Shown piece by piece: positions 2,755-55,462 of a DNA stretch of 64,000 nt. Source of the DNA: Candidatus Methylomirabilis sp. (GTDB taxonomy: Bacteria; Oederibacteriota; PGYV01; DYJU01). The DNA lies in contig DYJU01000001.1 of assembly GCA_020722985.1 (NCBI GenBank), positions 4,943 through 68,942 on the forward strand, given 5' to 3'. The notes beneath the pieces are model-generated. The model saw only the letters and a program-made list of their open reading frames with translations, did not search any database and was not told the DNA's origin. How positions within the stretch are numbered: position 1 is the first letter of the stretch; every line of letters starts with the position of its first letter. Made by a program: the position numbers and the translations under genes.

Positions 2755-3132
2755 ATGAAAATTTTGATAGATGGCTATAATCTTTTACATCAATTAAAAT
2801 TTAAAGAAAAAATTTTTTCTGATAAAAGAGAAAGGTTAATTTGTTTGCTCGAAGATTTTAAGAAAATAAACGAAGTTGATATTACAGTGATTTTTGATGG
2901 TAAAAATCAGGAGTCGCAGATAAGGGGTTTTGAAAATAAAAACGGAATAAAAATAATATATTCGGCATCAGGAGAAACAGCAGACGATGTTATAATTGAT
3001 ATTTTAAAAAAAAGAAAAGAAAAACCAGAAAATTATGCAGTGGTTACATCAGATAATAAAATAATAAATTTTGCTTATGAAAATTCAATAAGAATTATTA
3101 CAAGTGAAAGTTTTGCAGATTATTTAATTTAA
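2755..3132 (+). CDS. YacP-like NYN-domain (PIN-like) predicted RNA-binding protein or ribonuclease
   Basis: The N-terminus reads MKILIDGYNLLHQ...ITVIFDG, which is typical of YacP/Rae1 NYN proteins. Size is 125 aa. Confidence 0.55.
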   Translation: MKILIDGYNLLHQLKFKEKIFSDKRERLICLLEDFKKINEVDITVIFDGKNQESQIRGFENKNGIKIIYSASGETADDVIIDILKKRKEKPENYAVVTSDNKIINFAYENSIRIITSESFADYLI

Positions 3133-4187
3133 CTCTGTTTTAAAAAAATTGTTTGAGTGGGATAGGCAAAGATAATATTCAATTTTGAAAATTCTTCAAA
3201 TATTTTTAAATTAATTTCCTGTTGAATATCCATATATTTATTATAATCATTGCCATTTACATAATAGACAATTTCATAAATTAAAGCAGAATCACCGTAA
3301 CTTGCAAAATGTGCTCTATCAAATTTTGTATCGTTGATGGATAAAATTATATTTTTAATAATATCAGGGAGCTTTTTTAATTTTTCCAGCGGGGTGTCAT
3401 AAGTTACACCTATTTTAAATTCAACCCGCCTTAAATACATTCTTTTATAATTTTTAATACTGGAATTTGTTAAGGCAGAATTAGAAAAAATAAGTTCTTC
3501 ACCACTTAAACTTCTTATTCTCGTAGTTTTAAGACCTATGGTTTCAATTGTTCCTGAAGCATCGCCGACTATTATGAAATCGTCAACTTCAAATGGTTTA
3601 TCAAAGATAATAACAAAATATGAAAATAAATCACCAAGAATTGCTTGTGCTGCAAGGGCAACTGCAATACCGCCAATTCCAAGTCCAGCAAGGACAGTGG
3701 AAATTTTATAACCTAAATTATCTAAAATTAAAATAAACCCTAATCCCCAGATAAATACTTTAAAAATTATTAAAAATCCTTTTAGATTTTTTATTTTTGA
3801 AGTATCTTTGCTTTTATTTATTAAATAAAATTCCATAAAAAATGAAATTAAATTTACAATAAATTTTAGAATAAAAAATGTTGCAGAAATGATAAATAAA
3901 ATTTTAATATATTTGAATATTTTATCCGGCAATTCAATAAAATTAAAAGCAATGTAAAAAACACTTAAATAGAATAAGGGAATTATTGTATTATTAATTG
4001 TTGAATTTAAAAAAGTAAAGAAGTTTGAAGTTTTATCATCTAAAAATTTTTTTGAAAAATTTTTATAGATTTTTTTTAATAAAAATATACAAAACCAGCC
4101 TGTGAAAATAACCGCAAGAAAAAGAAAAAAATTATAAAATGCAGGGGTATTTTTAAAAAATATAAATAATTTATTTAATTTTTCCAT
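3129..4187 (-). CDS. Small-conductance mechanosensitive channel, MscS family
   Basis: There are N-terminal transmembrane helices and a conserved MscS beta-domain block (FEVDDFIIVGDASGTIETIGLKTTRIRSLSGEELIFSNSALTNSSIKNY). This is the only long minus-strand gene in the window. Confidence 0.8.
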   Translation of the reverse strand: MEKLNKLFIFFKNTPAFYNFFLFLAVIFTGWFCIFLLKKIYKNFSKKFLDDKTSNFFTFLNSTINNTIIPLFYLSVFYIAFNFIELPDKIFKYIKILFIISATFFILKFIVNLISFFMEFYLINKSKDTSKIKNLKGFLIIFKVFIWGLGFILILDNLGYKISTVLAGLGIGGIAVALAAQAILGDLFSYFVIIFDKPFEVDDFIIVGDASGTIETIGLKTTRIRSLSGEELIFSNSALTNSSIKNYKRMYLRRVEFKIGVTYDTPLEKLKKLPDIIKNIILSINDTKFDRAHFASYGDSALIYEIVYYVNGNDYNKYMDIQQEINLKIFEEFSKLNIIFAYPTQTIFLKQS

Positions 4188-4238
4188 AAGTTGCTCCTTG
4201 GTTATAATTTATAATTGAATATAACAGAAAATAATAAT

Positions 4239-4284
4239 TTGTAAAATATTTTTTTTCTTTTATAATTTAACTATATGGTTAAAT
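4239..4284 (+). promoter_or_regulatory. Sigma70-like promoter (TTGTAA, 16-bp spacer, TATAAT) with a 20-bp near-palindromic operator ATTTAACtATATGGTTAAAT immediately downstream
   Basis: TATAAT lies at 4261-4266 and the palindrome at 4265-4284. The same promoter-plus-operator arrangement recurs at 9427-9472 upstream of the TetR-family regulator gene. This copy points rightward toward the RND operon and sits divergently from mscS. Confidence 0.45.
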
Positions 4285-4617
4285 ACAAAATATATGAGGT
4301 GGCATATGTATAAAAAAAAGGGTAATAATTTTTATTTTTTTAATATTCTGGATAATTCCTGCATTTTTATTTTTTAATTTTAAAAAAATTTTTACAGTGA
4401 ATTTGCTATTGAATACAGGAGCATAATTGCGCCTTCCTTTGTTGAAAATAATACGACAGGCACTTCATATTTTTTAGGTAAACCGGGGATAGATATTTCA
4501 AAATGGGTAAATATATATGCCGGTCTTTCTTTTGCTTTTTTTGCTGAACATGCAAATAAACAGCATCATTTATATATCTAAAGTATATCAAATAAAAGAT
4601 TCATCACTAAAAAAATA

Positions 4618-4931
4618 GTAATGATTTAGCCACCAGGAGTAATTAAAAAGTTCGTATATTAAAAAAGACCTGGCGATGTCATTCTTAGGAAGCCGAAGTA
4701 GAAGTGAAGTGAGAAAAATAAGGGCGTATGAGGCTTAAGGAAGCAATCTGGCAGTTGAAAAACGAAAGAAGACAACACTAAAAGGCGATCGGTGATAAAA
4801 TCAAGATTGCTCTGTCAGCCTCATCAAACGGTAGAATAGAAGATAGAGGGAATCATTCGCCTGACAACGCAATGACAAATAAAAAATTTATTTATGGACC
4901 AATTTTGTTCTGCTAACGGCTAAACTATTAC
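4618..4931 (+). mobile_element. MITE-like repeat bounded by terminal inverted repeats, copy 1 (~315 bp)
   Basis: The 5' end reads GTAATGATTTAGCCACCAGGAGT and the 3' end reads AACGGCTAAACTATTAC. The conserved core is cattcttaggaagccgaag...aagcaatctggcagttgaaaaacgaaagaagacaa...gataaaatcaagattgctctgtcag...tcgcctgac...gcaatgacaaa. It contains no consistent ORF. Confidence 0.65.
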
Positions 4932-5012
4932 AAAAAATAAATTTTTGCATAGAAAAAAATTTTTATTTAATTTAAAATATTTAAAATATATTTAATTTAA
5001 CTGGAGGATAAA

Positions 5013-5906
5013 ATGAATGAAAAGATAAAAAAATTGTTAATCATTTTTATAGTAATAATTTTTATAATTATTTTTTTTCGGATAATAAGAAAAATAATTA
5101 TAACAACGGGAAAATCAAAAGAAATTTTTTTTGAAGTTGGCATTGAAAAATTAGTTTTAAAAGAAATTACAGAGATAATAAAATTTGAAGGTGTTGTAGA
5201 AGGAGATCCACAGATAAAGGTATATTCACAGGTCCCGGGAAAATTTGAAAAAAATAATGTAATAGAAGGTAATTATGTTAGGAAAGACAATATAATTTCA
5301 TATATAAATAGAGATGTTATCGGTTTTGAATATAATTTAGCTCCTGTAAAATCGCCAATAGATGGAATTGTTGTAAAACTTTATTTTTTTGATAAAGGCG
5401 ATACTGTTTTTCCTCAGATGCCAGTTGCTGAAATTGCAAAAGTTGATAATTTAAAAGTGGTTATTAATACAGGTGAAAAAGATTTAATTAAATTAAAAAA
5501 AGACCAGGCAGCAAAAATTACTTTAATTTATGATGAAAATGTTTATCTTAAAGGAAAAGTTTTTTCTGTAACGCCATTTATAAATAAAGACACCCTTTCA
5601 GGAACAGTTGTAATAAAAGCAAAAAATCCCGAACAAAAAATTAAACCAGGACAATCTGTTAAAATTGAAATTGAAACAGAAAAGAAAATTGCGTTTTTAA
5701 TTCCAGATAAAGCAATATTGACAGATGAAAATGGCACATATGTTTTTATAAATGATAATAATACTGCTAAAAAAGTTTATGTTAAAATCGGTTATATAGA
5801 AAATGATTTAACGGAGATAATAGGAGATTTAAAGGAAGGAATAGAAGTAATTACAGAAGGTAGTTTTAAACTTTATGAAAATGCAAAAATAAAAATATTA
5901 AATTAA
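5013..5906 (+). CDS. Efflux RND transporter periplasmic adaptor subunit (membrane fusion protein, HlyD/AcrA family)
   Basis: It has an N-terminal transmembrane or signal anchor and biotinyl/lipoyl-like and beta-barrel adaptor motifs (VKSPIDGIVV; KPGQSVKIEIE). It sits immediately upstream of the RND pump with a 10-bp gap. A GGAGG ribosome-binding site precedes the ATG. Confidence 0.8.
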   Translation: MNEKIKKLLIIFIVIIFIIIFFRIIRKIIITTGKSKEIFFEVGIEKLVLKEITEIIKFEGVVEGDPQIKVYSQVPGKFEKNNVIEGNYVRKDNIISYINRDVIGFEYNLAPVKSPIDGIVVKLYFFDKGDTVFPQMPVAEIAKVDNLKVVINTGEKDLIKLKKDQAAKITLIYDENVYLKGKVFSVTPFINKDTLSGTVVIKAKNPEQKIKPGQSVKIEIETEKKIAFLIPDKAILTDENGTYVFINDNNTAKKVYVKIGYIENDLTEIIGDLKEGIEVITEGSFKLYENAKIKILN

Positions 5907-5916
5907 AAGGATAAAA

Positions 5917-8900
5917 ATGAATATCGCAAAATTAGCAATTGAAAGACCCATTTTTGTAGTAATGATAATCATGTCTTTAATTACTTTAGGGGTAATTGGT
6001 TATAATAACATGGGCGTTGATTTACTTCCCGATGTTGAATATCCAACAATTACAGTGATAATAATATATGGAGGAGCATCAGCAGAAGAAATGGAAAATT
6101 TAATAACAAAACCGGTAGAAGATGCATTAGGAACGATACAGGGATTAGATTCAATTATTTCCACATCAAAAGAAAATATAGCATATATAACTGCAAAATT
6201 CGGACTTGGAACAGATATAAAATATGCAGAAATGAAAGTAAAAGAAAAAATTGACCTTGTAAAAACTAAACTGCCAGATGGCATAGAAGAGCCAAAAGTA
6301 ACCAGATTTTCTTTAACAGATATACCAGTGATTGCTTTAACTTTACAGGGTAAAAAAGATCTTGCCACCTTGTATGATATCGTTGAAGATACTTTAAAGC
6401 CGGAGTTAGAAAAAATATCAGGTGTTGGTAAGGTTGAAATCTGGGGTGGGAGGCAACGGGCAGTTATGGTTTATATTAATAAATCTTTACTTTCAGCAAG
6501 GGCAATTACTTTAAATCAAATAGTTGAGTCAATTAAAAAAGAAAATTTAAATATACCGGCTGGTTCTTTAAAAACAGACAACAAAAGTATCATTGTGAGG
6601 GTAAAGGGGCAATCTGACAGTATTGATGAAATAAAAAATATCCCTATAAAAACTTATACAGGAGAAGTTGTAAGATTGAAAGATATCGCAGATGTTAAAT
6701 TTACTTTAAAAGATGAAGAAGCAAGGGCAAGGGCAGAAGGAGAAAACGCAATAAGAATTGGTGTTTATAAACAAAGTGGAGAAAATACTGTTGCGGTTGC
6801 AAAAAGGGTTAAAATAAAGTTAAAAGATATACAAAAAGTTTTAAAAGATGAAGCAAGTATAAAGATATTCAGGGATCCTTCGGAATATATAAAAATAAGC
6901 ATAAAAGGTTTGCAGGAAGACATTTTACTTGGTGCTTTATTTGCAATGCTTATTGTGTGGTTATTTATGGGTAATTTCAGATCAACGATAATTACTGCAA
7001 TAGCATTGCCAAATTCATTGATAGGGGCTTTCTTTTTTATTTCAAATTTTGGATTTACAATTAATCTTATGGTTTTGCTTGCGCTTTCTCTCTGTATTGG
7101 ACTTTTAATTGATGATTCCATAGTTGTAAGAGAAAATATTTTTAGATATATGGAAAAAGGATTAAAACCAAAAGAAGCAGCTGAAAAAGGAACCAATGAA
7201 GTAGCTCTTGCAGTTGTTGCAACAACCATTTCAATTATGGCAGTTTTTATACCCATTTCTTTTTTACAGGGGGTAGTGGGACAATATTTCAAACAATTTG
7301 GTTTAACGGTTGCTTTTGCTTTAGTAATATCTTTAATTGATGCGTTTACTACAGCACCCATGCTATCTGCTTACTGGTGGAAAAAACATAAAAAAGGGGA
7401 AGGTGAATTTAATAAATTTTTTGATAAACTTTCTTATGAATGGAATTTATTTTATGAAAAGTTAAACAGCATTTACAGAGAAATACTTATCTGGGCGTTA
7501 GAAAAAAAGAAAAAAGTTTTATCAATTGTAATACTTTTATTTATTTTCAGTATAATATGCCTGAAATTTATTGGACTTAGTTTTTTACCTGACACGGATT
7601 ATCATAACTATGAGTTAAAATTTGAAACTTACCCGGGCGCTACACTTGATGAAACAGATAACAAAATAAAAAAAATTGAAAAGTATATTATGTCACACAA
7701 AGAAACTTTAAAATGTTTTACCGCAGTTGGGACAGATGGAGAAAATACCGGCACAATATTTGTGGAGACGGATAAGAAAAAACAAAAAAAACCAACACAG
7801 ATGATAGTAGAAGAAGTTATAAGTTATATAAAGAAAAATTATGGCAGTGATTTATTGATAAATCAGGAAGAAACAGGTGGAGCAGAAGTTATCTCGGGTG
7901 GTGGAGATAGTGCTTCTCTGGTTATAAATATAACTGGTCCAGAAATGAAAACTTTAGAAAAGTTAGCAACAGAAATAAAAAATGTAATATTAGAGACAGG
8001 GGGAGTATCTGGTGCGAATACTTCATTAAAAACAGGCAAACCAGAAATAATTATAAAGTTAGATAGAACCAAAGCATCAAGTTTTGGTATAACAAGTTAT
8101 GATATTGGTATTTTATTAAATTTTCTTATAAAAGGTGCTGAAATATCAAAATTTAAAAAGCGTGAAAAAGAATATGATATTATTTTAAGAATGAAAAAAA
8201 ACAATATCAAAACAATTGATGATTTAAAAGATATAATCATAACAACTTCTGCGGGTAAAAAAATACCATTAAACGCAATAAGCACAATGGAATATACGAC
8301 AGGTCCTGTTGAAATATTAAGAGAAAATAAAAAAAGAGTAATAAAAATTACTGGAAATTTACAGCATGGGTTTGCATTGGGCGATGTTATAAATATGATA
8401 AACGAAAATATTAAACGAAATGTTAAAATTCCAGAAGGTTATGAATATAATTTTTCAGGACAGGCAACACAGATGACAGAAACTATAACCCAGATGAGTA
8501 AGGCAATGTTTTTTGCGCTGCTTTTTATGTATATGATACTTGCATCTCTTTATAATTCTTTTATCCAGCCGCTTATTTTAATGCTTTCTGTTCCTCTTGC
8601 AATAATAGGCGCTTTTCTTACGCTTTTGCTTTTTGGAATAAAAATGGATGTTATGGCTATGATAGGAATTTTAATGGTTTTAGGTCTTGTCGCAAAAAAT
8701 GGAATACTACTTATAGATTTTACAAATCAGAAGAGAAAAGAAGGCTTATCAGCAAGAGATGCTTTGCTATATGCAGGTCCAATAAGGTTAAGGCCGATTT
8801 TGATGACTACATTTGCAATGATATTTGGAATGTTGCCGCTTGCTTTGGGTTTTGGAGAAGGACCGATGAGAACAAGAGCAATGCCTGTTGCAGTAATAGG

Positions 8901-9009
8901 CGGGTTGCTTACTTCTACTTTCCTAACTCTTGTTGTGATACCGATTGTGTATGAAATGTATGAGAATTTTAAAGAGAGGTTTAGTAAAAAAGTTAATAAA
9001 AAAAATTGA
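5917..9009 (+). CDS. RND efflux pump, inner-membrane permease of the AcrB/AcrD/AcrF family (hydrophobe/amphiphile efflux-1)
   Basis: The protein is 1030 aa with the classic AcrB N-terminus (IERPIFVVMIIMSLITLGVIGYNNMGVDLLPDVEYPTITV). It has the duplicated 12-TM architecture with two large periplasmic loops. No outer-membrane factor gene follows it. Confidence 0.9.
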   Translation: MNIAKLAIERPIFVVMIIMSLITLGVIGYNNMGVDLLPDVEYPTITVIIIYGGASAEEMENLITKPVEDALGTIQGLDSIISTSKENIAYITAKFGLGTDIKYAEMKVKEKIDLVKTKLPDGIEEPKVTRFSLTDIPVIALTLQGKKDLATLYDIVEDTLKPELEKISGVGKVEIWGGRQRAVMVYINKSLLSARAITLNQIVESIKKENLNIPAGSLKTDNKSIIVRVKGQSDSIDEIKNIPIKTYTGEVVRLKDIADVKFTLKDEEARARAEGENAIRIGVYKQSGENTVAVAKRVKIKLKDIQKVLKDEASIKIFRDPSEYIKISIKGLQEDILLGALFAMLIVWLFMGNFRSTIITAIALPNSLIGAFFFISNFGFTINLMVLLALSLCIGLLIDDSIVVRENIFRYMEKGLKPKEAAEKGTNEVALAVVATTISIMAVFIPISFLQGVVGQYFKQFGLTVAFALVISLIDAFTTAPMLSAYWWKKHKKGEGEFNKFFDKLSYEWNLFYEKLNSIYREILIWALEKKKKVLSIVILLFIFSIICLKFIGLSFLPDTDYHNYELKFETYPGATLDETDNKIKKIEKYIMSHKETLKCFTAVGTDGENTGTIFVETDKKKQKKPTQMIVEEVISYIKKNYGSDLLINQEETGGAEVISGGGDSASLVINITGPEMKTLEKLATEIKNVILETGGVSGANTSLKTGKPEIIIKLDRTKASSFGITSYDIGILLNFLIKGAEISKFKKREKEYDIILRMKKNNIKTIDDLKDIIITTSAGKKIPLNAISTMEYTTGPVEILRENKKRVIKITGNLQHGFALGDVINMINENIKRNVKIPEGYEYNFSGQATQMTETITQMSKAMFFALLFMYMILASLYNSFIQPLILMLSVPLAIIGAFLTLLLFGIKMDVMAMIGILMVLGLVAKNGILLIDFTNQKRKEGLSARDALLYAGPIRLRPILMTTFAMIFGMLPLALGFGEGPMRTRAMPVAVIGGLLTSTFLTLVVIPIVYEMYENFKERFSKKVNKKN

Positions 9010-9044
9010 AAATTCTTTTTAGTTATAGGTATTATAGATTTTTT

Positions 9045-9362
9045 GTAATAGTTTAACCATCAGAAGCAACTTATGAAAGTTCATATATTAGTAAAAGCCC
9101 CTTGAAGTTGTCATTCTCAGGAAGCCGAAAGGGGAGAATGAAAAACAAATGGCGTATGAGAATTAACAAAGCAATATAGCAGTTGAAAGCATGAAGCAAA
9201 AAAGGTGAGAAGGCAATCGGTAATAAAAGCAAGATTGCTCTGTCAGTCTCATTTAACGATGGGGTTAAAAAATAGGGGTTATAGTTCGTCTGACTTTAAA
9301 ATGGAAAGGCAAAAAAATTTATTTATGGGCGAAATTTATTCAACCAGTAACTAAATTATTAT
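9045..9362 (+). mobile_element. MITE-like TIR-bounded repeat, copy 2
   Basis: It starts GTAATAGTTTAACCATCAGAAG, shares the family core, and ends CAACCAGTAACTAAATTATTAT. It lies between the RND pump stop and the tetR promoter. Confidence 0.65.
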
Positions 9363-9426
9363 AATTTTTAATTTATTTAACTGTCCGCCATGTCTTTCAT
9401 TATTCCCATTAACAATAAAATTTTAC

Positions 9427-9472
9427 TTGATTTAATATTTTTTTATTTTATAATTTAACCATATGGTTAAAT
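9427..9472 (+). promoter_or_regulatory. Promoter (TTGATT, 16-bp spacer, TATAAT) overlapping a perfect 20-bp palindrome ATTTAACCATATGGTTAAAT. This is the likely autoregulatory operator of the TetR-family repressor.
   Basis: The palindrome at 9453-9472 is perfect. It lies 24 bp upstream of the tetR start at 9496 and overlaps the -10 element. Confidence 0.55.
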
Positions 9473-10163: not shown

Positions 10164-10967
10164 ATGGAACATAATTTGCCACCTTTAAAAATAAGATTGG
10201 CAGTAGTTTTTTCATTAATTTTGATTTTTACTTTAATTTATATTTTTTTAAAATGCGAGAGAAACACAGGAAAAATAGAGGCGATGGGGACAATAGAAAT
10301 AAAAGAAGTTGATATAACTTCGCGGGTAAATGCAAAAGTTGAAAAAATATTTTTTGATGAAGGGCAGGAGGTTAAAAAAGGCGATATTTTAATTAAATTG
10401 GAATCACGGGTTTATGAGGCACAATTTAATGCGGCAACATCATTATATAACAATGCACAAAAAAATTATGAAAGATCAAAAGAACTTTTTAAAGTAAATT
10501 CAATTTCGAGGCAGCAGTATGAGCAGGCAGAAGCAAATTTTTTATCTGCAAAGGCAAACTTAGAACAGGCAAAATTATTGTTTGAAGATACCCAACCCAA
10601 GGCGCCCTGGGATGGAATTATTTTAAAAAGGCATGGGGAAGAAGGCGAACTTATATCGCCTAATACTCCACTTTTTACAATAGGCAATTTAAAAGAAGTA
10701 AAAATTATAGTATATGTTTCGTTAAAAGATTTGGGAAAAATAAAATACGGGCAGATGGCAAAGATAAAAATAGATAGTTTTAAAAATAAAATTTATGAAG
10801 GAAAAATTACATTTATCTCTGATAAAGCTGAGTTTACCCCTAAAAATATTCAGACAAAAGATGAAAGAGTAAAACAGGTTTTTGCAGTGGAGGTAAGTGC
10901 TAAAAATGATAATTATGAGTTAAAACCCGGGATGCCATGCGATGTTATTATTGACATTGAAAAATAA
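10164..10967 (+). CDS. HlyD-family periplasmic adaptor for the ABC-type efflux system (YbhG-like)
   Basis: It has one N-terminal transmembrane helix, a coiled-coil segment (QQYEQAEANFLSAKANLEQAKLL) and a beta-barrel domain. Its position matches ybhG. Confidence 0.75.
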   Translation: MEHNLPPLKIRLAVVFSLILIFTLIYIFLKCERNTGKIEAMGTIEIKEVDITSRVNAKVEKIFFDEGQEVKKGDILIKLESRVYEAQFNAATSLYNNAQKNYERSKELFKVNSISRQQYEQAEANFLSAKANLEQAKLLFEDTQPKAPWDGIILKRHGEEGELISPNTPLFTIGNLKEVKIIVYVSLKDLGKIKYGQMAKIKIDSFKNKIYEGKITFISDKAEFTPKNIQTKDERVKQVFAVEVSAKNDNYELKPGMPCDVIIDIEK

Positions 10968-10969
10968 AA

Positions 10970-11881
10970 ATGGAATCAATCGTAAAAGTTCAGGATTTAA
11001 AAAAATATTTTGGTAATATAAAAGCAGTTGATGGGATTTCTTTTGAGGTGAAAAAGGGGGAGATTTTTGGACTTATAGGACCAGATGGAGCAGGAAAAAC
11101 AACAACTTTAAGAATATTAACTGGCCTACTTAATATAAATTCAGGTGAAGTTCAGGTTGCAGGTTTTTATCTCCCGCAGGATTCAGAAAAAGTAAAAGAA
11201 AATATAGGTTATATGCCACAAAAATTTAGTTTATATAATGATTTAACTGTAAAAGAAAATATCTCATTTTTTGCAGAAATTTTTGAAATAGATAAAAAAA
11301 TTCTCATGGAAAGGATGGAACCGCTTCTTGAGATGACACGACTTCATCCTTTTTCAGACAGATTAACTGGTAATTTATCAGGTGGAATGAAACAGAAACT
11401 TGCCCTGATGTGCACTTTGATACACAGACCTAAAATTTTAATACTTGATGAACCAACAATAGGGGTTGATCCGGTTTCAAGGCGTGAATTCTGGGAAATT
11501 TTACAGAATATTGTTGCAGAAGGGATAACTGTTATATTAAGTACACCTTATATGGATGAAGCAGAGTGGTGCACACATATAGGACTTATTTTTAAAGGAA
11601 AAATATTGCAGATTGATACACCTAAAAATTTAAAAAAGCAATTTCCTTTTAATGTTTTTGAAATTGAATTAAAAAATAACAGGGAAAAAGTAATTGAAAA
11701 AATAAATAATATTAAAGAAATTGTTGATGCAAAAATTTTAGGTAAAAAAATACGAGTTATTACAAAAATTGATGAAATAGTGTTTAATTTAAAAAAAGAT
11801 TTTTATGATGCAATTGAACTAAAAAAGGTTGAACCGGTTATAGAAGATATATTTATTACAAAAATAAAAACAGGACATTGA
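10970..11881 (+). CDS. ABC transporter ATP-binding protein (ABC-2 type exporter)
   Basis: Walker A is GPDGAGKTT, the signature motif is LSGGMKQKLAL, and Walker B is ILILDEPT. Confidence 0.85.
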   Translation: MESIVKVQDLKKYFGNIKAVDGISFEVKKGEIFGLIGPDGAGKTTTLRILTGLLNINSGEVQVAGFYLPQDSEKVKENIGYMPQKFSLYNDLTVKENISFFAEIFEIDKKILMERMEPLLEMTRLHPFSDRLTGNLSGGMKQKLALMCTLIHRPKILILDEPTIGVDPVSRREFWEILQNIVAEGITVILSTPYMDEAEWCTHIGLIFKGKILQIDTPKNLKKQFPFNVFEIELKNNREKVIEKINNIKEIVDAKILGKKIRVITKIDEIVFNLKKDFYDAIELKKVEPVIEDIFITKIKTGH

Positions 11882-11891
11882 GGAGATAAAA

Positions 11892-12809
11892 TTGCAGGAT
11901 ATAGTAGTTTATGCGGAAAATTTAACAAAAAAATTTGGCAATTTTGTTGCTGTTGATAATATTTGTTTTGAAGTAAAAAAAGGTGAAATATATGGTTTTT
12001 TAGGCGCAAATGGTGCAGGAAAAACAACTACCATAAGAATGTTATGTGGTTTAATTACTCCAACATCAGGAGATGGTTTTGTTTGTGGGTTCAGCATAAA
12101 AGAAAATCCTGAGGAGGTTAAAAAACGTATAGGATATATGTCGCAAAAATTTTCTTTATATAATATATTAACTGTCAGGGAAAATTTAGAATTTTACGGT
12201 GGCATCTATGGGCTTGATAGCGGTTTAATAAAAAAGAGGATAAAAGAAATTTCAGAAAAAATTGATTTAAAAGAAGAAATTGACAGATTGGTGGAAGATT
12301 TGCCTGGTGGGATAAAACAACGTGTTGCACTTGCGTGTGCATTGCTGCATGATCCGCAGGTAATTTTTCTTGATGAGCCGACAGCAGGCGTTGATCCGGT
12401 TTTAAGAAAAAAATTCTGGGATATAATTGATGAATTATCTTTACAGGGAAAAACAGTTTTTGTCACCACACATTATATGGATGAAGTTGAACATTGTCAT
12501 AGAATTGCTTTGATGGATGAAGGGAAAATAATAAAAGAGGGTAAAATAAATAAGATAAAAAATCAAGATTTTGATAAAAAAATTTATGAAATAACTGTTA
12601 GCGATCCAGTTACTGAATATAAAAAATTAATAAAAGAAAAAGAAAAAATTGGAGATATATCTTTACATGGTTCATACATACATATAATAACCGATTTTTT
12701 TAAAGAAAAATTAAAAGAGTTATTATCTGATAATAATGTAGATTTTTCTGAAATAAAGCAAATAAATCCGAGCATGGAAGATATTTTTATAAAACTTGTG
12801 AAAAAATAG
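11892..12809 (+). CDS. ABC transporter ATP-binding protein, second ATPase. It is equivalent to the second half of the fused YbhF.
   Basis: Walker A is GANGAGKTT, the signature motif is LPGGIKQRVALA, and Walker B is VIFLDEPT. Confidence 0.85.
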   Translation: MQDIVVYAENLTKKFGNFVAVDNICFEVKKGEIYGFLGANGAGKTTTIRMLCGLITPTSGDGFVCGFSIKENPEEVKKRIGYMSQKFSLYNILTVRENLEFYGGIYGLDSGLIKKRIKEISEKIDLKEEIDRLVEDLPGGIKQRVALACALLHDPQVIFLDEPTAGVDPVLRKKFWDIIDELSLQGKTVFVTTHYMDEVEHCHRIALMDEGKIIKEGKINKIKNQDFDKKIYEITVSDPVTEYKKLIKEKEKIGDISLHGSYIHIITDFFKEKLKELLSDNNVDFSEIKQINPSMEDIFIKLVKK

Positions 12810-12817
12810 GGGAAATA

Positions 12818-13969
12818 ATGGATATAAAGGAAATAAATTTTAAAAGGATGCTTACAATATTTTTAAAAGAGTTTGTGCATATAAAAAGAGATGCGAGGTC
12901 TTTAGCAATTACTTTATTCGCCCCTGTTATATTGTTAATTCTATATGGATATGCGGTTACTTTTGATATAAAAAAAATAGATTTAGGCGTTGTTGATTAT
13001 GATAAAACAAAAGAAAGCAGGGAATTGATTATAAAATTTTTATCTTCTTCCTATTTTGAATTAAAAGAATCTAAAGATATAAAATTATGCATTGCGGCTT
13101 TAAGGGTAAATAAAATAAAAGCAATTTTAGTTATACCTGAAAAATTTTCAACTGATTTTAAGAAAAATAAAGATGTAAAAATACAGTTTATATTAGATGG
13201 CTCAGATGCCAATACAGCAAACGTTGCCCTGGGTTATGCAAAGATAATAATTGCAACATATTCAAAGAATATAATACTTGAAAAGGTAAGAAAAAAAGGA
13301 ATTAATCCTAAAAATATACCTGCTTTAGAACCTGTAGAAAGAATTTTTTATAATTCGGAATTAAAAAGTACAAATTTTATTATACCCGGGCTCATTGCCA
13401 TACTTATGATGTTAATTGCTGCAACATTAACATCGTTAACTATAGTCAGAGAAAAGGAAAGGGGAACATTTGAGCAGTTAATATCAACACCTGCAAAACC
13501 AATGGAACTCATGACGGGAAAATTATTTCCCTATGTTATCATAGGATGCGTTGATGTTGTTTTAGTTACACTTTTTGGGCTTTTATGGTTTAAAGTGCCG
13601 TTTAAGGGAGATATTTTTACTTTTTCTCTTTTTACAATACTCTTTATTTTTTGCGCGATGGGCCAGGGATTATTTATGTCAAGTATAGCAAAGAATCAGA
13701 CCATAGCAGTAATTGCAACTGTTTTTTCTACTGTTTTACCTTCCATGTTGCTTTCTGGCTTTGTTTTTCCAATTGATTCAATGCCATGGATTATAAGGTT
13801 ATTGACCTACATAGTTCCTGCAAAATATTTTTTAACTGCTTTACGTTCTATTTTTTTAAAAGAAGGCGTGGGACTTAATATTCTTTATCCAGAAGCTTTG
13901 TTTCTTTTTGTATTTGGTATGGTATTTTTATTGCTTGCTGCAAAAAAATTTAAAAAAAATCTGGAGTGA
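12818..13969 (+). CDS. ABC-2 family transporter permease (YbhS/YhhJ-like)
   Basis: It has an N-terminal transmembrane helix, a large periplasmic loop and six C-terminal transmembrane helices, which is the ABC-2 fold. Its end overlaps the next permease gene in an ATGA arrangement. Confidence 0.75.
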   Translation: MDIKEINFKRMLTIFLKEFVHIKRDARSLAITLFAPVILLILYGYAVTFDIKKIDLGVVDYDKTKESRELIIKFLSSSYFELKESKDIKLCIAALRVNKIKAILVIPEKFSTDFKKNKDVKIQFILDGSDANTANVALGYAKIIIATYSKNIILEKVRKKGINPKNIPALEPVERIFYNSELKSTNFIIPGLIAILMMLIAATLTSLTIVREKERGTFEQLISTPAKPMELMTGKLFPYVIIGCVDVVLVTLFGLLWFKVPFKGDIFTFSLFTILFIFCAMGQGLFMSSIAKNQTIAVIATVFSTVLPSMLLSGFVFPIDSMPWIIRLLTYIVPAKYFLTALRSIFLKEGVGLNILYPEALFLFVFGMVFLLLAAKKFKKNLE

Positions 13970-15099
13970 AAATGAATAAACCTATTTTAGCAATTATAAA
14001 AAAAGAATTTATAGAAATAAAAAGAAGCCATCTTATTGCATTGCTTATTATATCTCCTATTTTGCAGGTTATTGTATTCGGGTATGTTGCCACAACAGAT
14101 ATAAAAAATGTAAAAACAGTGATATGTGACAGGGATAATTCTGAATTAAGCAGAAAACTAACGGGAAAATTTTTAAATTCAGAATATTTTAAGGTAGTTG
14201 CATATACCCGTAATGAAAAAGATATAGATGAATTTATTAAAAGCAATAAGGCAGTTATAGGCATTTATATACCTGAAAAATTTTCAGAAAATATTAAAAG
14301 AACAAAAAAAACTCCTGTGCAAATAATAATAGATGGAACTGATTCAAATATGTCAACGATAAGTTTGAGCAGAACAGTTATGATAATAAATGCTTTTTCA
14401 GAAGATTGTTTTAAACAGAAAATGGAAATAATGAAAAAAATAATAGGTGGGCTTCCGTCTTTGAGTATGGAAGAACGAATCTTTTTTAATACCGAATTAA
14501 AAAGCGCAAATACAATGGTGCCTGGAGTTGTTGGACTTATTTTAACAATAGTTACGCTTGCAATAACTGCTGTTGCAATAGTGAGAGAAAAAGAAACAGG
14601 CAATATTGAGCAGATTATTGTAACTCCTGTAAAACCAGCAGAAATAATCGCAGGAAAAGTAATACCATATATTTTAATTGCTCTGTTAGACATTGTTTTA
14701 ATAACATTAACAAGTATTTTTATTTTCAGAATAAGTTTTGAAGGCAGTTTTACTTTGCTTGTTGCTTTATCATTTTTTTTGATTCTGGCAAATTTAGGAA
14801 TTGGGATTTATGTTTCAACTATTTCTTCAACCCAACAGCAAGCATTGCTTTCTTCTATTTTTTTTGCAGTGCCAAGTATTTTATTGTCTGGTTTTTTATT
14901 TCCTATAAAAAATATGCCGGAAATTTTGCAACTGCTCACCTTTTTTATACCGATGAGATATTATATGGTGATTTTGCGGGGAATATTTTTAAAAGGACTT
15001 GGCTTTATGGAACTTTTACCACAGACGCTTGCGTTATTCGTTTTTGGAGTAATTATTTTTATTGTTGCAATAAAGCAGTTTAGAAAACAGATAGGGTAA
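13966..15099 (+). CDS. ABC-2 family transporter permease (YbhR-like)
   Basis: It is a paralogue of the preceding permease with the same topology. Confidence 0.75.
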   Translation: MKMNKPILAIIKKEFIEIKRSHLIALLIISPILQVIVFGYVATTDIKNVKTVICDRDNSELSRKLTGKFLNSEYFKVVAYTRNEKDIDEFIKSNKAVIGIYIPEKFSENIKRTKKTPVQIIIDGTDSNMSTISLSRTVMIINAFSEDCFKQKMEIMKKIIGGLPSLSMEERIFFNTELKSANTMVPGVVGLILTIVTLAITAVAIVREKETGNIEQIIVTPVKPAEIIAGKVIPYILIALLDIVLITLTSIFIFRISFEGSFTLLVALSFFLILANLGIGIYVSTISSTQQQALLSSIFFAVPSILLSGFLFPIKNMPEILQLLTFFIPMRYYMVILRGIFLKGLGFMELLPQTLALFVFGVIIFIVAIKQFRKQIG

Positions 15100-15578: not shown

Positions 15579-16412
15579 ATGCATAATCTGGTTATAGTAG
15601 ACAAAGAAGATGAAAATTATTCTTTTGATAAAATTTCAAATAAAGTTATTTTAGGTGATTGTTTTAAAGTAATGAAAAGGTTGCCTTCCGAATTTGCCGA
15701 TTGTGTCTTTGTTGATCCCCCTTATTTTTTGCAACTCCCACCTAAAAAATTATTAAGGTGGACCGGTAGCATAGTTGATGGTGTAAATGACAAGTAGGAT
15801 ATTTTTAAAGATTTTGATGATTATGATAATTTTACAAAAAATTATTTGACGGAAATTAAAAGATTAATGAAACCCAATGCAACTATCTGGATTATAGGGA
15901 CATATCATAATATTCATAGAATTGGAAAGATAATGTTAGATTTGGGCTTTTGGATTTTAAATGATATAATATGGTTTAAGACAAATCCAATGCCTAATTT
16001 TTTAGGCGTTAGATTTACAAATGCTACAGAAACTTTACTTTGGGCTGTAAAAGATAAAAAAATAAAAAAATATACTTTTAATAAAGAAATTGCCAGAAGT
16101 TTCAATGGCGGTAAATTGGGAATAAATGTATGGCAAATACCGCTTTGCACTGGACGGGAGAGATTAAGAAATGAAAAAAAGGAGAAAATACATTCAACAC
16201 AAAAACCACAAGAATTATTAAGAAGAGTTATTTTAACATCTACAAAAGAAAATGATGTTATTTTTGACCCGATGGCTGGCACTGGAACAACTGGATTTAT
16301 GGCAAAAAAATTAAATCGTAAATTTGTAATGATAGAAAAAAATAAAGATTACGTTGATGCCATTGTTAAAAGATTTGAGACAGAATTTAATTCTTTATTA
16401 TTTAAAACATGA
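15579..16412 (+). pseudogene. Beta-class (DPPY) N6-adenine or N4-cytosine DNA methyltransferase of the CcrM/M.HinfI type, interrupted by a single in-frame TAG
   Basis: ORFs 15579-15797 and 15846-16412 lie in the same reading frame. Only the TAG at 15795-15797 separates them. Motif IV (VFVDPPY) comes first, then IWIIGTYHNI..FWILNDIIWFKTNPMPNF, then the C-terminal SAM-binding FDPMAGTGTTG. The TAG falls where CcrM-like enzymes have Trp (DEWDKF against DK*DIF), which fits a TGG to TAG change. Confidence 0.65.
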
Positions 16413-17275
16413 ATTATAAAAATTTTTGTTTAATTTTAAATAAACATATTTTTGAAGATGAAAAAAAAGAATTATTAAAAAATATCTCTGAAAGGCCAGA
16501 GCGTTTTATCGGATTGTTCAGACCTACAAAACCTGGTGCTAAAATTCTTCAACATATTTTGTAATCACACGAAATCAGATTTGGCGATGCTTTTGAAGAG
16601 TTAATAGGAGAAATTTTAAGAGAGTGTGGGTTTGTAATTCATAATAAAACAATTACTGATGAAAATGGAAATTTTTTATCATTGGATCAATATTATGAAA
16701 TAAATGAGATTTATTATTTTATTGAACAGAAAGTAAGGGATGATCATGACTCTACTAAAAAACGAGGACAAATCTCTAATTTTGAATCAAAATTAGAGAT
16801 ATTGTATAAAAAACACAAAGAGAAACTTGTTGGGATTATGTATTTTATTGATCCAGAACTTTCAAAAAATAAAAATTATTATTTGCCTGAATTAAATAAA
16901 TTATGTAAATTTTATGATGTTAAAACTTATTTGTTTTATGGAAAAGAATTATTTAATCATCTTGGCAGGTCAGATTTATGGAATCATATTCTCTCCTGGT
17001 TGAAAGAATGGAAAGACAGCTTACCGGAAATCCCGGAAATTGATTTTGATAAAACGCCAGAAAAAAGTTTTGAACAATTGAAAGAATTACCAATTAGATA
17101 TTGGCGTAAGGTATTAGAAAATGAAAAATTATGGACAGAAGGAATTGTTAAAGCAATTTTTAGAAAAGGCGAAGTACTAAAATTATTATTAGAATATTTT
17201 AAACAACAAAAAGACAAGCCACACATTGAATTATCAAAATTGCTAAAGGATTTATTAAAAAAATATTATGGTTAA
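16409..17275 (+). pseudogene. Probable cognate type II restriction endonuclease gene, interrupted by an in-frame TAA. Specific function is unassigned.
   Basis: Its ATG at 16409 overlaps the methyltransferase TGA in an ATGA arrangement. A 51-codon N-terminal segment ends at a TAA at 16562-16564. The listed ORF 16682-17275 continues in the same frame, and the frame is already open from 16565. Position directly after a methyltransferase is typical of an R-M pair, but no catalytic motif was recognised. Confidence 0.35.
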
Positions 17276-17344: not shown

Positions 17345-17742
17345 GTAATAGTTCAACTTCCAGAAGTTCGTTTATAAAAGTTCATATATTAGCAGAAAAC
17401 TCTTGAAGACGGACTTCTTAGGAAGCCAAAAGAAAAGTGTAAAAGATTAAATAAGGATTAATGTGAGCCAGACGAAGCAATTTTGCAGTTAAAAAACGAA
17501 AGAAGACAACACTAAAAGGCGTCAGGTGATAAAAGCAAGATTGCTTTGTCGGGTTCAATTAAACGAGGGAATAGAAGACAAAGGGGTTTGTTCGTCTGAC
17601 ATTTAGAAGGTAGAGACGCCCATCCTTGGGCGTCTACACCCGGGGAATAGAAGATAAAGGAATTCATTCACCTGACTTTAAATGACAGAACAAAAAATTT
17701 ATATATGGGTAAAATTTATTCAATCAGCAACTAAATTATTAT
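17345..17742 (+). mobile_element. MITE-like TIR-bounded repeat, copy 3, carrying an internal ~75-bp duplication
   Basis: It starts GTAATAGTTCAACTTCCAGAAGT and ends CAGCAACTAAATTATTAT. The segment gaatagaaga..cctgac is duplicated inside it and includes a perfect hairpin, agacgccca-tcct-tgggcgtct, at 17605-17626. Confidence 0.65.
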
Positions 17743-17808
17743 AATTTTTAACTTCTTTAATCGTGCATCCTATATTTCCTTATTCCTCAACCTGTGCAAT
17801 TTTTTTAC

Positions 17809-19097: not shown

Positions 19098-19166
19098 CTA
19101 TCTTTGCTTAAAGGAACGAGCATAAATCCGCGGATGGTAAATGCGAAGGAGGGGGTTAAATTTAAC

Positions 19167-19488
19167 GTAATAGTTAAGCCACTAGAAGTGAATTTGTAAA
19201 AGTTTGGCTACTAGTAAGGAAACACTTGGCGATGTCATTGCGAGGAAGCCGAAAGAAAAGTGTAGAAAGAAAAATAAAAAGCGGACGAGGCTGACGAAGC
19301 AATCTGGCAGTTGAAAAACGGAAGCAGACAAGGTGAGAAAGCATCATGTGATAAAATCAAGATTGCTTTGTCGGGCGGGAGTTAACTGTGGAATAAAATG
19401 CATAAGTTATCGTTCGCCTGACTTTAAAATGACAGAACAAAAATTTATTTATAGACTGATTTTATTTTATTGGTGGCTAAACTATTGC
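19167..19488 (+). mobile_element. MITE-like TIR-bounded repeat, copy 4
   Basis: It starts GTAATAGTTAAGCCACTAGAAGT and ends TGGTGGCTAAACTATTGC. The internal ORF 19333-19542 is not conserved in frame among copies. Confidence 0.65.
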
Positions 19489-19604
19489 AAATCTCTCTTT
19501 AACTGTTTACCATGTCTATCCTTATTCCCAGTAAAAATATAAAAATATTTGTAAAATTTATTTATTTTGTTATACTTATATAAGTAAATTTCAAGGAGGT
19601 AAAA

Positions 19605-24574: not shown

Positions 24575-24902
24575 GTAATAGTTCGGATACCAGAGGTAAT
24601 TTATAAAAGTGCATATATTAGAAAAAAACTCTTGAAGGCGTTGATGGAAGAAAGCCGAAAAAGAATGGTGGAATGGGAAATAAGGGTAACGGGTAACGGA
24701 AGGATTAATAAAGCAATCTTGCAGTTTAAAAATGAAAGAAGACAAGGCGAAAAGGCAACCGTAAATAAAATCAAGATTACTTTGTCATGCAAAATTTAAG
24801 GTGTAATAGTAGATAAATGGACCCATTCACCTGACTTTAAAATGACAAAGCGAAAAATTTATATCTGGACTAATTTTGTTTTACCAGTGGCTAAACTATT
24901 AC
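24575..24902 (+). mobile_element. MITE-like TIR-bounded repeat, copy 5
   Basis: It starts GTAATAGTTCGGATACCAGAGGT and ends TACCAGTGGCTAAACTATTAC. The ORFs 24569-24799 (+) and 24557-24745 (-) are artefacts within it. Confidence 0.65.
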
Positions 24903-24939
24903 AATTTACAATAAAGATAATTTAAAAGGATAGAATTTA

Positions 24940-27111: not shown

Positions 27112-27431
27112 GTAAAAATTTAGTCACCAGAGGTAATTTACAAAAGTTCAGATATTAGTAAAAAACTCTTGAAGACGGCCTTCTTAGGAATCCGAAAGAG
27201 AAGCGTAGAAAGAAAAATAAAGGGCGGACGAGCAAAATGAAGCAATCTTGTAATTGTATAGCGGCAAGAAAACTAAGCTAAAAAACAATCGGTAATAAGA
27301 GCAAAGATTATTTTTAAGGTGGGAGTTAACTGTGAAATAAAAGACAAAAGGGCTTGTTTGCCTGACTTTAAAATGACAACAAAAAATTTATTTATTGGCA
27401 AATTTTATTATGCTAGTGGTAAAATTATTGC
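27112..27431 (+). mobile_element. MITE-like repeat, copy 6, with a degenerate 5' TIR
   Basis: The 5' end is GTAAAAATTTAGTCACCAGAGGT. The core is conserved (ggaatccgaaagagaag...aagcaatcttgtaattg...). The 3' end is GCTAGTGGTAAAATTATTGC. Confidence 0.55.
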
Positions 27432-27615
27432 ATATATTTTATAGGGAGGAACCCTTTTTGAAAAGTCCACACAATATTATACATTAACCAGTGGGAAAAT
27501 ATTGCGTAAATTCTAATTTTTGGCTATAATTATTTAATAAATAAATTTTAAAAATCTGTTCTATTTGAGGCTAAACTATTATCAGTATTGAAATATTCAT
27601 TAAGGAGGTTATATT

Positions 27616-28110: not shown

Positions 28111-28499
28111 GTAATGGTTCAGCCGCCAGAAGTGAACTTGGAAGAGTGTGGCTACCATTAAGTAAATATATGGCATTGTCATTTTTAGGAAGCCGAAAGA
28201 GGAATGTAAAATGGGAAATAAGGATAATATGAGCCGAATGAAGCAATCTTGCAGTTGAAAAACGAAAGAAGACAATATTAAAAGGCGATCGGTAGTAAAA
28301 AGCAAGATTGCTTTGTCAGGCGATAGTGAATGTATAAAAAATATAGGTTATCATTCGCTTTGCTTTAAAATGACAACGGAAAAAATTTAATGATTAATTT
28401 TGTTCTACCAGTGGCTAAGCTATTACCCTGATTTTGCAATGAAAGAGCGAAAAATTTATATCTTAACAAATTTTATTTTACCAACGGCTATACTGTTAC
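28111..28499 (+). mobile_element. MITE-like repeat, copy 7 (28111-28426), followed by a tandem partial duplicate of its 3' end (28427-28499)
   Basis: It starts GTAATGGTTCAGCCGCCAGAAGT. Its first 3' end is CTACCAGTGGCTAAGCTATTAC. The partial unit then repeats gcaatgaaagagcgaaaaatttatat...CCAACGGCTATACTGTTAC. Confidence 0.6.
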
Positions 28500-28688
28500 T
28501 AAATATTTTAATTATTATTATTGTTTTATAATATGGGACAGTTTTTAAATAATTTTTTTATTTCTATTGCTAGTTTAAGGAACCTGACAAAATGATTTTA
28601 AAGTAATATATGAATAATATATACTATGTGTTTCGGTTTCGCTTAGAAAATTTATCTAAAAATATTACGAAAACTAAATAAAAAAAAT

Positions 28689-48787: not shown

Positions 48788-48828
48788 AAACTTTACCGAT
48801 TGTCAATGCTGGTTGATATAACAAAGAC

Positions 48829-49154
48829 GTAATAGTTTTGCCATTAGAAGTCCACTTGTAAAAGTATGGCTACTAGTAAGGAAAACCCTAACTATTGTCA
48901 TTCTTAGGAAGCCGAAAGAGAAGTTAAGAAGAGGAAATAAGGGCGGACGGACGAGCCAGACGAAGCAATCTGGCAGTTGAAAAACGAAAGAAGACAAGAT
49001 AAAAAGGCGCTCAGGTATAAAAGCAAGATTGCTTTGTCAGACTCATTAAACGGAGGAATAGAAGTCAGAAGTTATCGTTTGCCTGACTTCGCAATGACAA
49101 AGTAAAAAATTTATTTATTGACCAATTTTGTCCTATCAGTGGCTAAAATGTTAC
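48829..49154 (+). mobile_element. MITE-like TIR-bounded repeat, copy 8
   Basis: It starts GTAATAGTTTTGCCATTAGAAGT and ends ATCAGTGGCTAAAATGTTAC. Confidence 0.65.
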
Positions 49155-49317
49155 TAATATTTTATTAATACTATTATTTTATAAAAAAGGGCAATCTTTT
49201 TTAATTATTTTCCCCTTTCTATTACAATTTTAACGGATACAGAACATGCTTTTTAAAATCAATAAACTATGATAAAATAAAAATCAAATTTATATTTAAT
49301 TCAGGAAGGAAAGAAAA

Positions 49318-54992: not shown

Positions 54993-55105
54993 TATTTTAA
55001 AAAAATAATTTAGACTTTTTTGTTTTGTTTGCATTTTATAAAGTGTAACAGAATTTTAAAGGAAATGGGTAAAGTTAAAAACTGCCTTTATATTTCAGAA
55101 TAATA

Positions 55106-55428
55106 GTAATAGTTCAGACACCAGAAGTCCACCTGTAAAAGTGTGATTACTAGAAAGAAAATACATGGCTTTGGCATTCTTAGGAAGCCGAAATAAAAGT
55201 TAAGAAGGGAAAATAAGGGCATATGAGGCTTAAGGAAGCAATATGGCAGTTAAAAGCCAGAAGATGATAATGGAAGAAGGCATTTTGTGATAAAAGCAAG
55301 ATTGCTTTGTCAGGCGAGAGTTAAGGTGGAATAGAAGGCAGTGGTTATCATTCGCCTGACTTCGCAATGACAAAATGAAAAAATTTATATATGGACAAAA
55401 TTTATTCTGCCAGTGGCTAAAATATTAC
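55106..55428 (+). mobile_element. MITE-like TIR-bounded repeat, copy 9
   Basis: It starts GTAATAGTTCAGACACCAGAAGT and ends CTGCCAGTGGCTAAAATATTAC. Confidence 0.65.
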
Positions 55429-55439
55429 AAAAAGAAGTC

Positions 55440-55462
55440 CCTTCTCCCCAGAGGGGAGAAGG
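55440..55462 (+). terminator. GC-rich perfect hairpin (10-bp stem, 3-nt loop) followed by a G/T-rich tract. It may be a terminator or RNA stability element.
   Basis: The hairpin ccttctcccc-aga-ggggagaagg sits immediately 3' of repeat copy 9. Confidence 0.3.

Follow-up and report, generated by a model that had tools for sequence, protein, structure and literature searches.

A TetR-family regulator with predicted operators at an exporter operon and at the promoter of a decayed efflux operon

Does a single TetR-family regulator control two efflux systems in this stretch of DNA, and through which promoters? The stretch analysed (contig DYJU01000001.1; 64,000 nucleotides, hereafter the window, numbered from its first base) holds a tetR gene at the head of a transporter cluster of the HlyD-ABC-ABC2 type (an HlyD-type adaptor, ATP-binding cassette ATPases and ABC-2 permeases) and, upstream of it, an adaptor and pump of the resistance-nodulation-division (RND) family. 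A first-pass annotation, made from the window alone, noted one 20-bp palindrome in two promoters and proposed that one TetR regulator represses both systems. We find that the palindrome is strongly supported as the operator of the adjacent TetR regulator itself. Its second copy, at position 4265, appears to be the native operator of an ancestral operon whose first gene, encoding a small outer membrane protein (OMP), is now dead. We put at about 0.7 the probability that both sites are bound by TetR and that transcription into the adaptor and pump genes still comes from the 4265 promoter.

Results

Two copies of a palindrome and their promoters

The 20-bp sequence ATTTAACCATATGGTTAAAT at 9453-9472 is a perfect palindrome, and ATTTAACTATATGGTTAAAT at 4265-4284 is the same palindrome with one mismatch (C>T). 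When we searched both strands of the window with up to three mismatches, these two copies were the only matches, and 100 dinucleotide-preserving shuffles yielded none. This search and a promoter scan bear out the initial observations that the perfect copy overlaps the -10 element of the tetR promoter and that the other copy lies in a promoter of the same architecture, with TATAAT and spacer conserved. The segments 4250-4284 and 9438-9472 are identical at 33 of 35 nucleotides (nt). By consensus scan, both sites share one layout, a TTG-type -35, a 16-nt spacer and TATAAT, and in each case the palindrome begins within the -10 hexamer, at its final two bases (Table 1). Judging by these positions, a protein bound at either palindrome would cover the transcription start.

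The tetR promoter shares its -35 segment, TTGATTTAATAT, with an 85% identical orthologue (L163) that itself lacks the repeat element described below. The TTAACT variant at the 4265 site occurs also in the tetR-proximal operators of four other loci (L164, L018, L062 and L064). With the more general family motif TTTAACCAnnTGGTTAAA and up to two mismatches there are three matches in the window, compared to 0.24 expected; the third (9252-9269) is weak, with two mismatches, and lies within a copy of the repeat, other copies of which do not contain it.

The palindrome and the TetR regulator

The protein encoded by tetR has a clear N-terminal TetR domain (Table 1), and its C-terminal part has only a weak match, to TetR_C_29 (E = 4e-4, 21 bits, where the cutoff is 26.2). 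Its closest solved homologue by sequence is Escherichia coli RutR (3loc, E = 4e-12, residues 7-120). RutR is also its best NCBIfam match, far under the cutoff (TIGR03613, 71.4 bits versus 368; NF011584 gives 60.6 bits versus 230), and the RutR models align only with the N-terminal ~120 residues.

To compare upstream regions, we retrieved loci with TetR orthologues of 42-99% identity; the names given to homologues at their sources point to Candidatus Goldbacteria/Goldiibacteriota. A profile search of genome contigs with the TetR alignment gave mostly relatives at ~30% identity and a single one at 52%. Directly 5' of tetR, every close orthologue has ATTTAACCAnnTGGTTAAAC abutting a -10-like hexamer, followed by a half-site, nnAATGGTTAA. 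The close orthologues with the operator just upstream of tetR are L162, L163, L164/165, L166/167, L168/169/L082 and L170, and five of these loci (L163, L164, L166, L168 and L170) all read ...GGTTAAAC-nnAATGGTTAA. Of all 172 retrieved loci, which come from many phyla and have TetR homologues of 25-99% identity, 111 have TTTAACCAnnTGGTTAAA, with up to two mismatches, in the 400 nt that precede the tetR homologue. Elsewhere in the 2.2 Mb searched there are 20 matches, about 14 of them just downstream of tetR and before the transporter genes. Pairs of sites with a 13-nt offset recur in many distant loci, and the window retains only a degenerate second site (GGTCAA).

Because the motif tracks tetR across orthologues and phyla, we read the palindrome as the operator of TetR itself. 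Autoregulation of the tetR-HlyD-ABC-ABC2 operon, which the first-pass annotation had proposed, is strongly supported by this phylogenetic footprint.

The genes from the HlyD-type adaptor to the second permease (10164-15099) are separated by gaps or overlaps of at most 10 nt, so together with tetR they look like one operon. Among the 109 loci with 4 kb or more of sequence downstream, 92 have the same HlyD-ABC-ABC2 cassette after the tetR homologue.

The position of the operator varies in some relatives. In L083, L084 and L002, which are 42-52% relatives, it lies 160-1300 nt upstream of tetR (regions around 9800-9990 of L083 and 8580-8750 of L084, and 8675 of L002), and in L083 and L084 a short lysine-rich open reading frame of ~40 aa separates operator and tetR. 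Many loci of Chitinophagaceae type have, besides the upstream operator, another one in the interval from tetR to the transporter genes, ~630 nt past the tetR start (L021, L028, L029, L047, L056, L057, L060, L063, L073, L110, L115 and L118).

Directly 3' of the ABC operon, at 15846-17275, is a type II restriction-modification pair (an N6_N4 methyltransferase and a HinfI-like endonuclease). In the 69% relative L168, a HinfI-type pair precedes tetR.

A dead gene behind the second promoter

The 4265 promoter had been annotated as that of the RND adaptor and pump. It turns out to be that of a small-OMP pseudogene; the ATG of the adaptor is 728 nt downstream of the 4265 site, in the same orientation, and a TolC-like gene appears to have been deleted. 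Translation from the ATG at 4306 runs into two in-frame stops, followed by 65 open codons without a start codon. The frame-1 remnant (4384-4578) was identified by an exhaustive profile-free search: it aligns with residues 26-91 of a 197-aa protein, P0109, at 75% identity. In tblastn, residues 3-28 and 29-90 of P0109 match different frames, with a 3-residue deletion, and there is no match past residue 90. We class the gene as a pseudogene because of this frame switch, deletion and 3' truncation relative to P0109. An independently assembled strain with 99% identity, L162, carries the same pseudogene sequence, and the pseudogene peptide has no Pfam match. The intact family is predicted to form an 8-stranded beta-barrel like those of OmpA-TM, OmpX, Ail and NspA (mean pLDDT 74; Foldseek matches up to E = 6e-8). 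P0109 (L177, 2065-2658) and its homologues P0121-P0128 and P0111-P0119 make up a family of ~195-aa proteins without a Pfam domain, and the small OMP may serve the efflux system as an accessory component of the outer membrane.

Two sister-species contigs from one sample, L177 and L172, retain the genes that the window has lost. L177 reads ThiI-YacP-MscS (minus strand), a 140-nt spacer, an intact small-OMP gene (encoding P0109), 13 nt, and a TolC-like gene. Compared with the window, identity is 82% for its MscS and 93% for its YacP; its TolC-like gene is 87% identical to that of L172, which carries in a row the 3' end of the small-OMP gene, the TolC-like outer membrane efflux protein (OEP) gene, an adaptor gene (87% identical) and a pump gene. 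The spacer in L177 contains TTGAAT-17-TATAAT, then ATTTAACCAGATGGTTAAAT, a Shine-Dalgarno sequence (SD) and the ATG; the position of this operator is homologous to that of the 4265 site, and the spacer and OMP start are collinear with window 4160-4570. Since L177 has the operator at the same position before an intact gene, the 4265 site would be the native operator of the ancestral operon, older than both the species split and the decay of the gene, rather than a duplication specific to the window. We reconstruct the ancestral operon provisionally as smallOMP-OEP-adaptor-RND.

DNA homology with L177 ends at 4570. From ~4926 on, where a copy of the ~320-nt repeat has its 3' end, the window is again homologous to L172. 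Between these points are ~40 nt of other sequence and the repeat copy itself (321 nt, 4611-4931), whose 3' end is the right-hand junction. We interpret this as a deletion in the window species of the 3' half of the OMP gene and the whole TolC-like gene, with the repeat copy at the junction.

Three candidates for further genes were sought and rejected. A degraded tetR paralogue 3' of the 4265 site, which would indicate that the promoter arose by gene duplication, was not found by tblastn of 4190-5012 (best E = 0.16, on the wrong strand). Nor did we find a marR remnant in 4190-5012, where we looked because marR occupies that position in L166. Finally, no TolC/OEP gene or remnant was found in the window (tblastn, best E = 0.18). 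Thus, of the three parts of a tripartite RND operon, the adaptor and permease are present and an OEP gene with the pump is absent from the 64 kb, whereas the sister contigs L172 and L177 have one. The identical adaptor occurs on other contigs (P0079).

On the other side of the 4265 promoter, a promoter-like site for the divergent mscS gene (4218-4245, minus strand) stands back-to-back with it, and their -35 hexamers overlap. TetR bound 20 nt away might affect mscS too, compare the action of CecR on the divergent rhlE in E. coli.

Does the 4265 promoter still serve the pump?

From the observed conservation, synteny and pseudogene status we infer binding, repression, read-through and release by a ligand, as follows. 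TetR bound at 9453-9472 would block RNA polymerase at the tetR-HlyD-ABC-ABC2 operon, and a ligand would release it, as is standard for the TetR family. The degenerate second site, with its 13-nt offset, probably admits a second TetR dimer at the tetR promoter. In the ancestor, the 4265 promoter would have driven the small beta-barrel OMP, the TolC-like channel, the adaptor and the RND pump. Today TetR most likely represses transcription that begins at about 4273, crosses the pseudogene and the repeat and continues into the genes for the adaptor and the pump. Co-regulation of the two systems by one TetR is plausibly ancestral. The proposal of the first-pass annotation thus stands in part: a second efflux-related promoter with the operator is conserved in L177, whereas control of the pump in the window is our reading of the sequence.

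Several points weigh against this reading. The 4265 site has one mismatch and no second overlapping site, so TetR may bind there more weakly than at the tetR site. L177 and L172 are from different organisms of one sample, so the four-gene operon is pieced together from two contigs. Among the RND orthologues at 66-76% identity, none has a TetR operator anywhere on its contig: the operon is headed by marR in L166/L173 (76% adaptor identity) and in L174/L175 (66%), and follows another RND operon in L176 (66%). The function of the pump itself is uncertain because there is no TolC-like gene in the 64 kb. The 4265 promoter may be a relic, given that one of the operon's two leading genes is dead and the other is gone. 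It is separated from the adaptor by 728 nt that include 321 nt of moderately structured repeat, and the weak promoter-like site at 4950-4978, which L172 shares, could by itself drive the pump.

The last of these points belong to the rival explanation that survives best, namely that the operator is functional and the promoter a relic: TetR would bind 4265-4284, and the pump would be transcribed from 4950-4978 or from the repeat, free of TetR control. The death of the OMP gene, the loss of the TolC-like gene and the repeat in the gap are all as it would have them, and the proximal TAGAAA-17-TAAAAT is conserved as TAGAAA-17-TAGAAT in the 143-nt OEP-adaptor spacer of L172. That proximal site is weak, however (9 of 12 matches), and the operator and promoter at 4265 are fully kept, with a perfect TATAAT, and the 99% strain L162 has them unchanged. 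Within 4100-5100 the scan predicts no terminator-like site, nor therefore any in 4285-5012, so read-through from the operator-controlled promoter is possible. We consider a relic promoter unlikely.

A second rival is very improbable. It holds that the tetR promoter was recently copied, by duplication or gene conversion, into the spacer between mscS and the pump of this species, which would account for the 35-nt similarity without any history of regulation there. The 33 identities do include spacer positions that vary among orthologues, and the relatives at 66-76% identity have marR or an upstream RND operon and no operator; but the shared spacer is mostly a T-run that carries little information, and the operator of L177, at the same position before an intact gene, largely refutes the idea. 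Each species has one and the same dyad centre at its two sites (ATAT in the window; AGAT at tetR in L163 and at the OMP gene in L177), a match that may reflect gene conversion or shared constraint and on which we put no weight.

The MarR-headed relatives have a palindrome too: in L166 (4470-4515), and likewise in L173, marR is preceded by the perfect palindrome AATTAGGTTAACCTAATT beside TATAAT, presumably the MarR operator. The intergenic alignment of L166 with the window is too diverged to place a rearrangement junction. Among the loci sampled, the two-operon TetR regulon appears confined to the window species and its sister, and the relatives appear to use MarR.

The ~320-nt repeat

The first-pass annotation had placed each operator adjacent to a copy of a repeat. 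There is a copy near each site, but on opposite sides: copy 4611-4931 begins 326 nt downstream of the 4265 site, whereas copy 9046-9362, which lies in the pump-tetR interval, stops 90 nt short of the 9453 site on its upstream side (~30 nt counting the shared tail described below). This intergenic repeat is present in nine copies in the window, 64-80% alike and all on the plus strand like the flanking genes, and we observed it only in the window species (the window, L162 and L001). Seven of the nine copies have no palindrome nearby, and the operator is present in L163-L170 and L177, where the repeat is absent. Because these copies lack the palindrome and other species have the operator without the repeat, we regard the proximity as coincidental and the palindrome as separate from the repeat. 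The idea that the palindrome belongs to the repeat, or that another factor binds it and its proximity to tetR is incidental, is hardly credible, since the copy near each site and the weak match at 9252-9269 are all that speak for it, and the seven copies without a palindrome, the operators where the repeat is absent and the tracking of tetR across phyla refute it.

The repeat ends in a 14-bp terminal inverted repeat (GTAATAGTTTAGCCAC... / ...GTGGCTAAACTATTAC). A tail of ~70 nt at the 3' side, CTTTAACTGT..CCATGTCTTTC.TTATTCCC..., is common to three copies (tails at 9363-9420, 17745-17800 and 19498-19568) and stops just before the TTG -35 of the downstream gene, which is tetR, an AAA_14 gene and rmuC, respectively. 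No credible Rfam family was found for the whole window at gathering thresholds or for one repeat copy in E-value mode. The consensus fold of the nine copies has a terminal stem only, with little covariation, and the fold of a single copy has a z-score of -2.1. The repeat may represent a MITE-like element, or else an RNA that has yet to be described. Elsewhere in the window, at 56660-58015, there is a long coding array with a 12-nt periodicity and ACn-rich codons (probably Thr-rich), in which a repeat finder reports 37 overlapping copies.

Table 1. Positions of genes, promoters, predicted operators and repeat copies in the window.
Feature	Position	Strand	Details
MscS-type channel gene, divergent	3129-4187	-	Pfam; arrangement syntenic in L177, L166 and L173
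Promoter of the former smallOMP-led efflux operon	4239-4266	+	-35 TTGTAA 4239-4244, 16 nt, -10 TATAAT 4261-4266
Second TetR operator (predicted)	4265-4284	strandless	ATTTAACTATATGGTTAAAT; single dyad, no third half-site
Small-OMP pseudogene	4306-4581	+	SD GAGGTGG, ATG 4306; two homopolymer-run frameshifts, 9-nt deletion, cut after about residue 90
Repeat copy	4611-4931	+	
Retained ancestral region 5' of adaptor	4932-5012	+	Weak promoter-like TAGAAA-17-TAAAAT 4950-4978, SD GGAGG; 84% identical to the OEP-adaptor spacer of L172
RND adaptor, 297 aa	5013-5906	+	HlyD_D23 and TIGR01730 above cutoff; intact
AcrB-type pump, 1030 aa	5917-9009	+	Pfam ACR_tran, E = 1.8e-270, model positions 1-1019 of 1021; intact
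Repeat copy	9046-9362	+	
tetR promoter	9427-9454	+	-35 TTGATT 9427-9432, 16 nt, -10 TATAAT 9449-9454; 10 of 12 matches in consensus scan
Primary TetR operator (predicted)	9453-9472	strandless	ATTTAACCATATGGTTAAAT, core TTAACC-N4-GGTTAA; spans end of -10 and expected transcription start
Third half-site GGTCAA	9478-9483	+	Degenerate form of GGTTAA in orthologues; second overlapping site, 13-nt offset
TetR-family regulator gene, 220 aa	9496-10158	+	Pfam PF00440 TetR_N, E = 2.5e-13, residues 14-60
HlyD/YbhG-like adaptor	10164-10967	+	Pfam; best NCBIfam PRK03598, 158 bits versus 393 (under cutoff)
ABC ATPase	10970-11881	+	Pfam
ABC ATPase	11892-12809	+	Pfam
ABC-2 permease	12818-13969	+	Pfam
ABC-2 permease	13966-15099	+	Pfam
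Repeat copy	17345-17744	+	
Repeat copy	19165-19500	+	
Repeat copy	24575-24904	+	
Repeat copy	27112-27435	+	
Repeat copy	28111-28426 (+28427-28503)	+	
Repeat copy	48827-49158	+	
Repeat copy	55104-55440	+	

Discussion

For efflux biology the arrangement is unsurprising: one TetR repressor, two efflux operons and a RutR-like box. It provides a regulator-operator pair, open to testing, for an uncultured lineage like Candidatus Goldbacteria, and the consensus box predicts regulation of a tetR-HlyD-ABC-ABC2 cassette that is widespread in Bacteroidota, Cloacimonadota, Calditrichota, Fibrobacteria and other phyla. It also illustrates how regulatory inference from a single genome can mislead, because the apparent pump promoter is that of a dead gene and the original operon is visible only through the sister contigs.

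The box sequence had no match in the literature that we searched. A wider reading, on which we are tentative and which we put a little short of even odds, is that a RutR-like TetR subfamily with the nearly invariant box TTAACCAnnTGGTTAA, which appears uncharacterised, governs HlyD-ABC-ABC2 exporters in many phyla; that a Goldbacteria-like clade extended this regulon to include an RND operon whose first gene encodes an undescribed 8-stranded OMP, replacing the MarR control of the relatives; and that the window captures this operon in mid-decay, after a deletion beside the repeat. If true, this would be a clean natural example of the rewiring of efflux regulation, as well as a ready operator/regulator pair for uncultured lineages.

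Comparison with known systems

One comparison is with the MarR-regulated RND operons on the Goldbacteria-like contigs L166/L173 and L174/L175, whose adaptor and pump are orthologous to those of the window (66-76%). L166/L173 even share its synteny, ThiI-YacP-MscS(-)-...-adaptor-pump-...-tetR. These operons start with marR and its own palindrome and have no TetR operator, whereas the window has no marR remnant.

In E. coli, CecR (YbiH) is encoded by the first gene of the cecR-ybhGFSR operon and represses its own operon through a site in the spacer common to that operon and a divergent gene (PMC12998191). The first-pass annotation called the ABC system of the window ybhGFSR-like, and the gene order does match (TetR, an HlyD-type membrane fusion protein, ABC ATPase and two ABC-2 permeases), but the regulator is not a CecR equivalog (NF008587, 33.9 bits versus a cutoff of 365). 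YbhF is a single fused double ATPase, whereas the window has two separate ATPase genes, as well as a second operator at an RND-related operon. The operator resembles the RutR box.

Local TetR repressors of RND pumps include AcrR, with AcrAB, and EnvR, which acts on both acrEF and acrAB. As in those systems, one repressor here would serve more than one efflux promoter through operators over the -10 and transcription start; here, though, the targets are an ABC-type cassette and a partly decayed RND operon led by a small-OMP gene. TetR regulators with multiple targets have been reviewed (PMC6790063).

RutR belongs to pyrimidine catabolism, as opposed to the efflux context here, and its C-terminal ligand domain is not confidently alignable with that of the present regulator. 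The RutR box is TTGACCAnnTGGTCAA, in which positions 4 and 13 are the most important (PMC2475637). Our 16-bp box, TTAACCAnnTGGTTAA, has the same geometry and agrees with it at all 14 specified positions except 3 and 14. It keeps positions 4 and 13; the consistent A/T at 3 and 14, where RutR has G/C, is a distinct variant.

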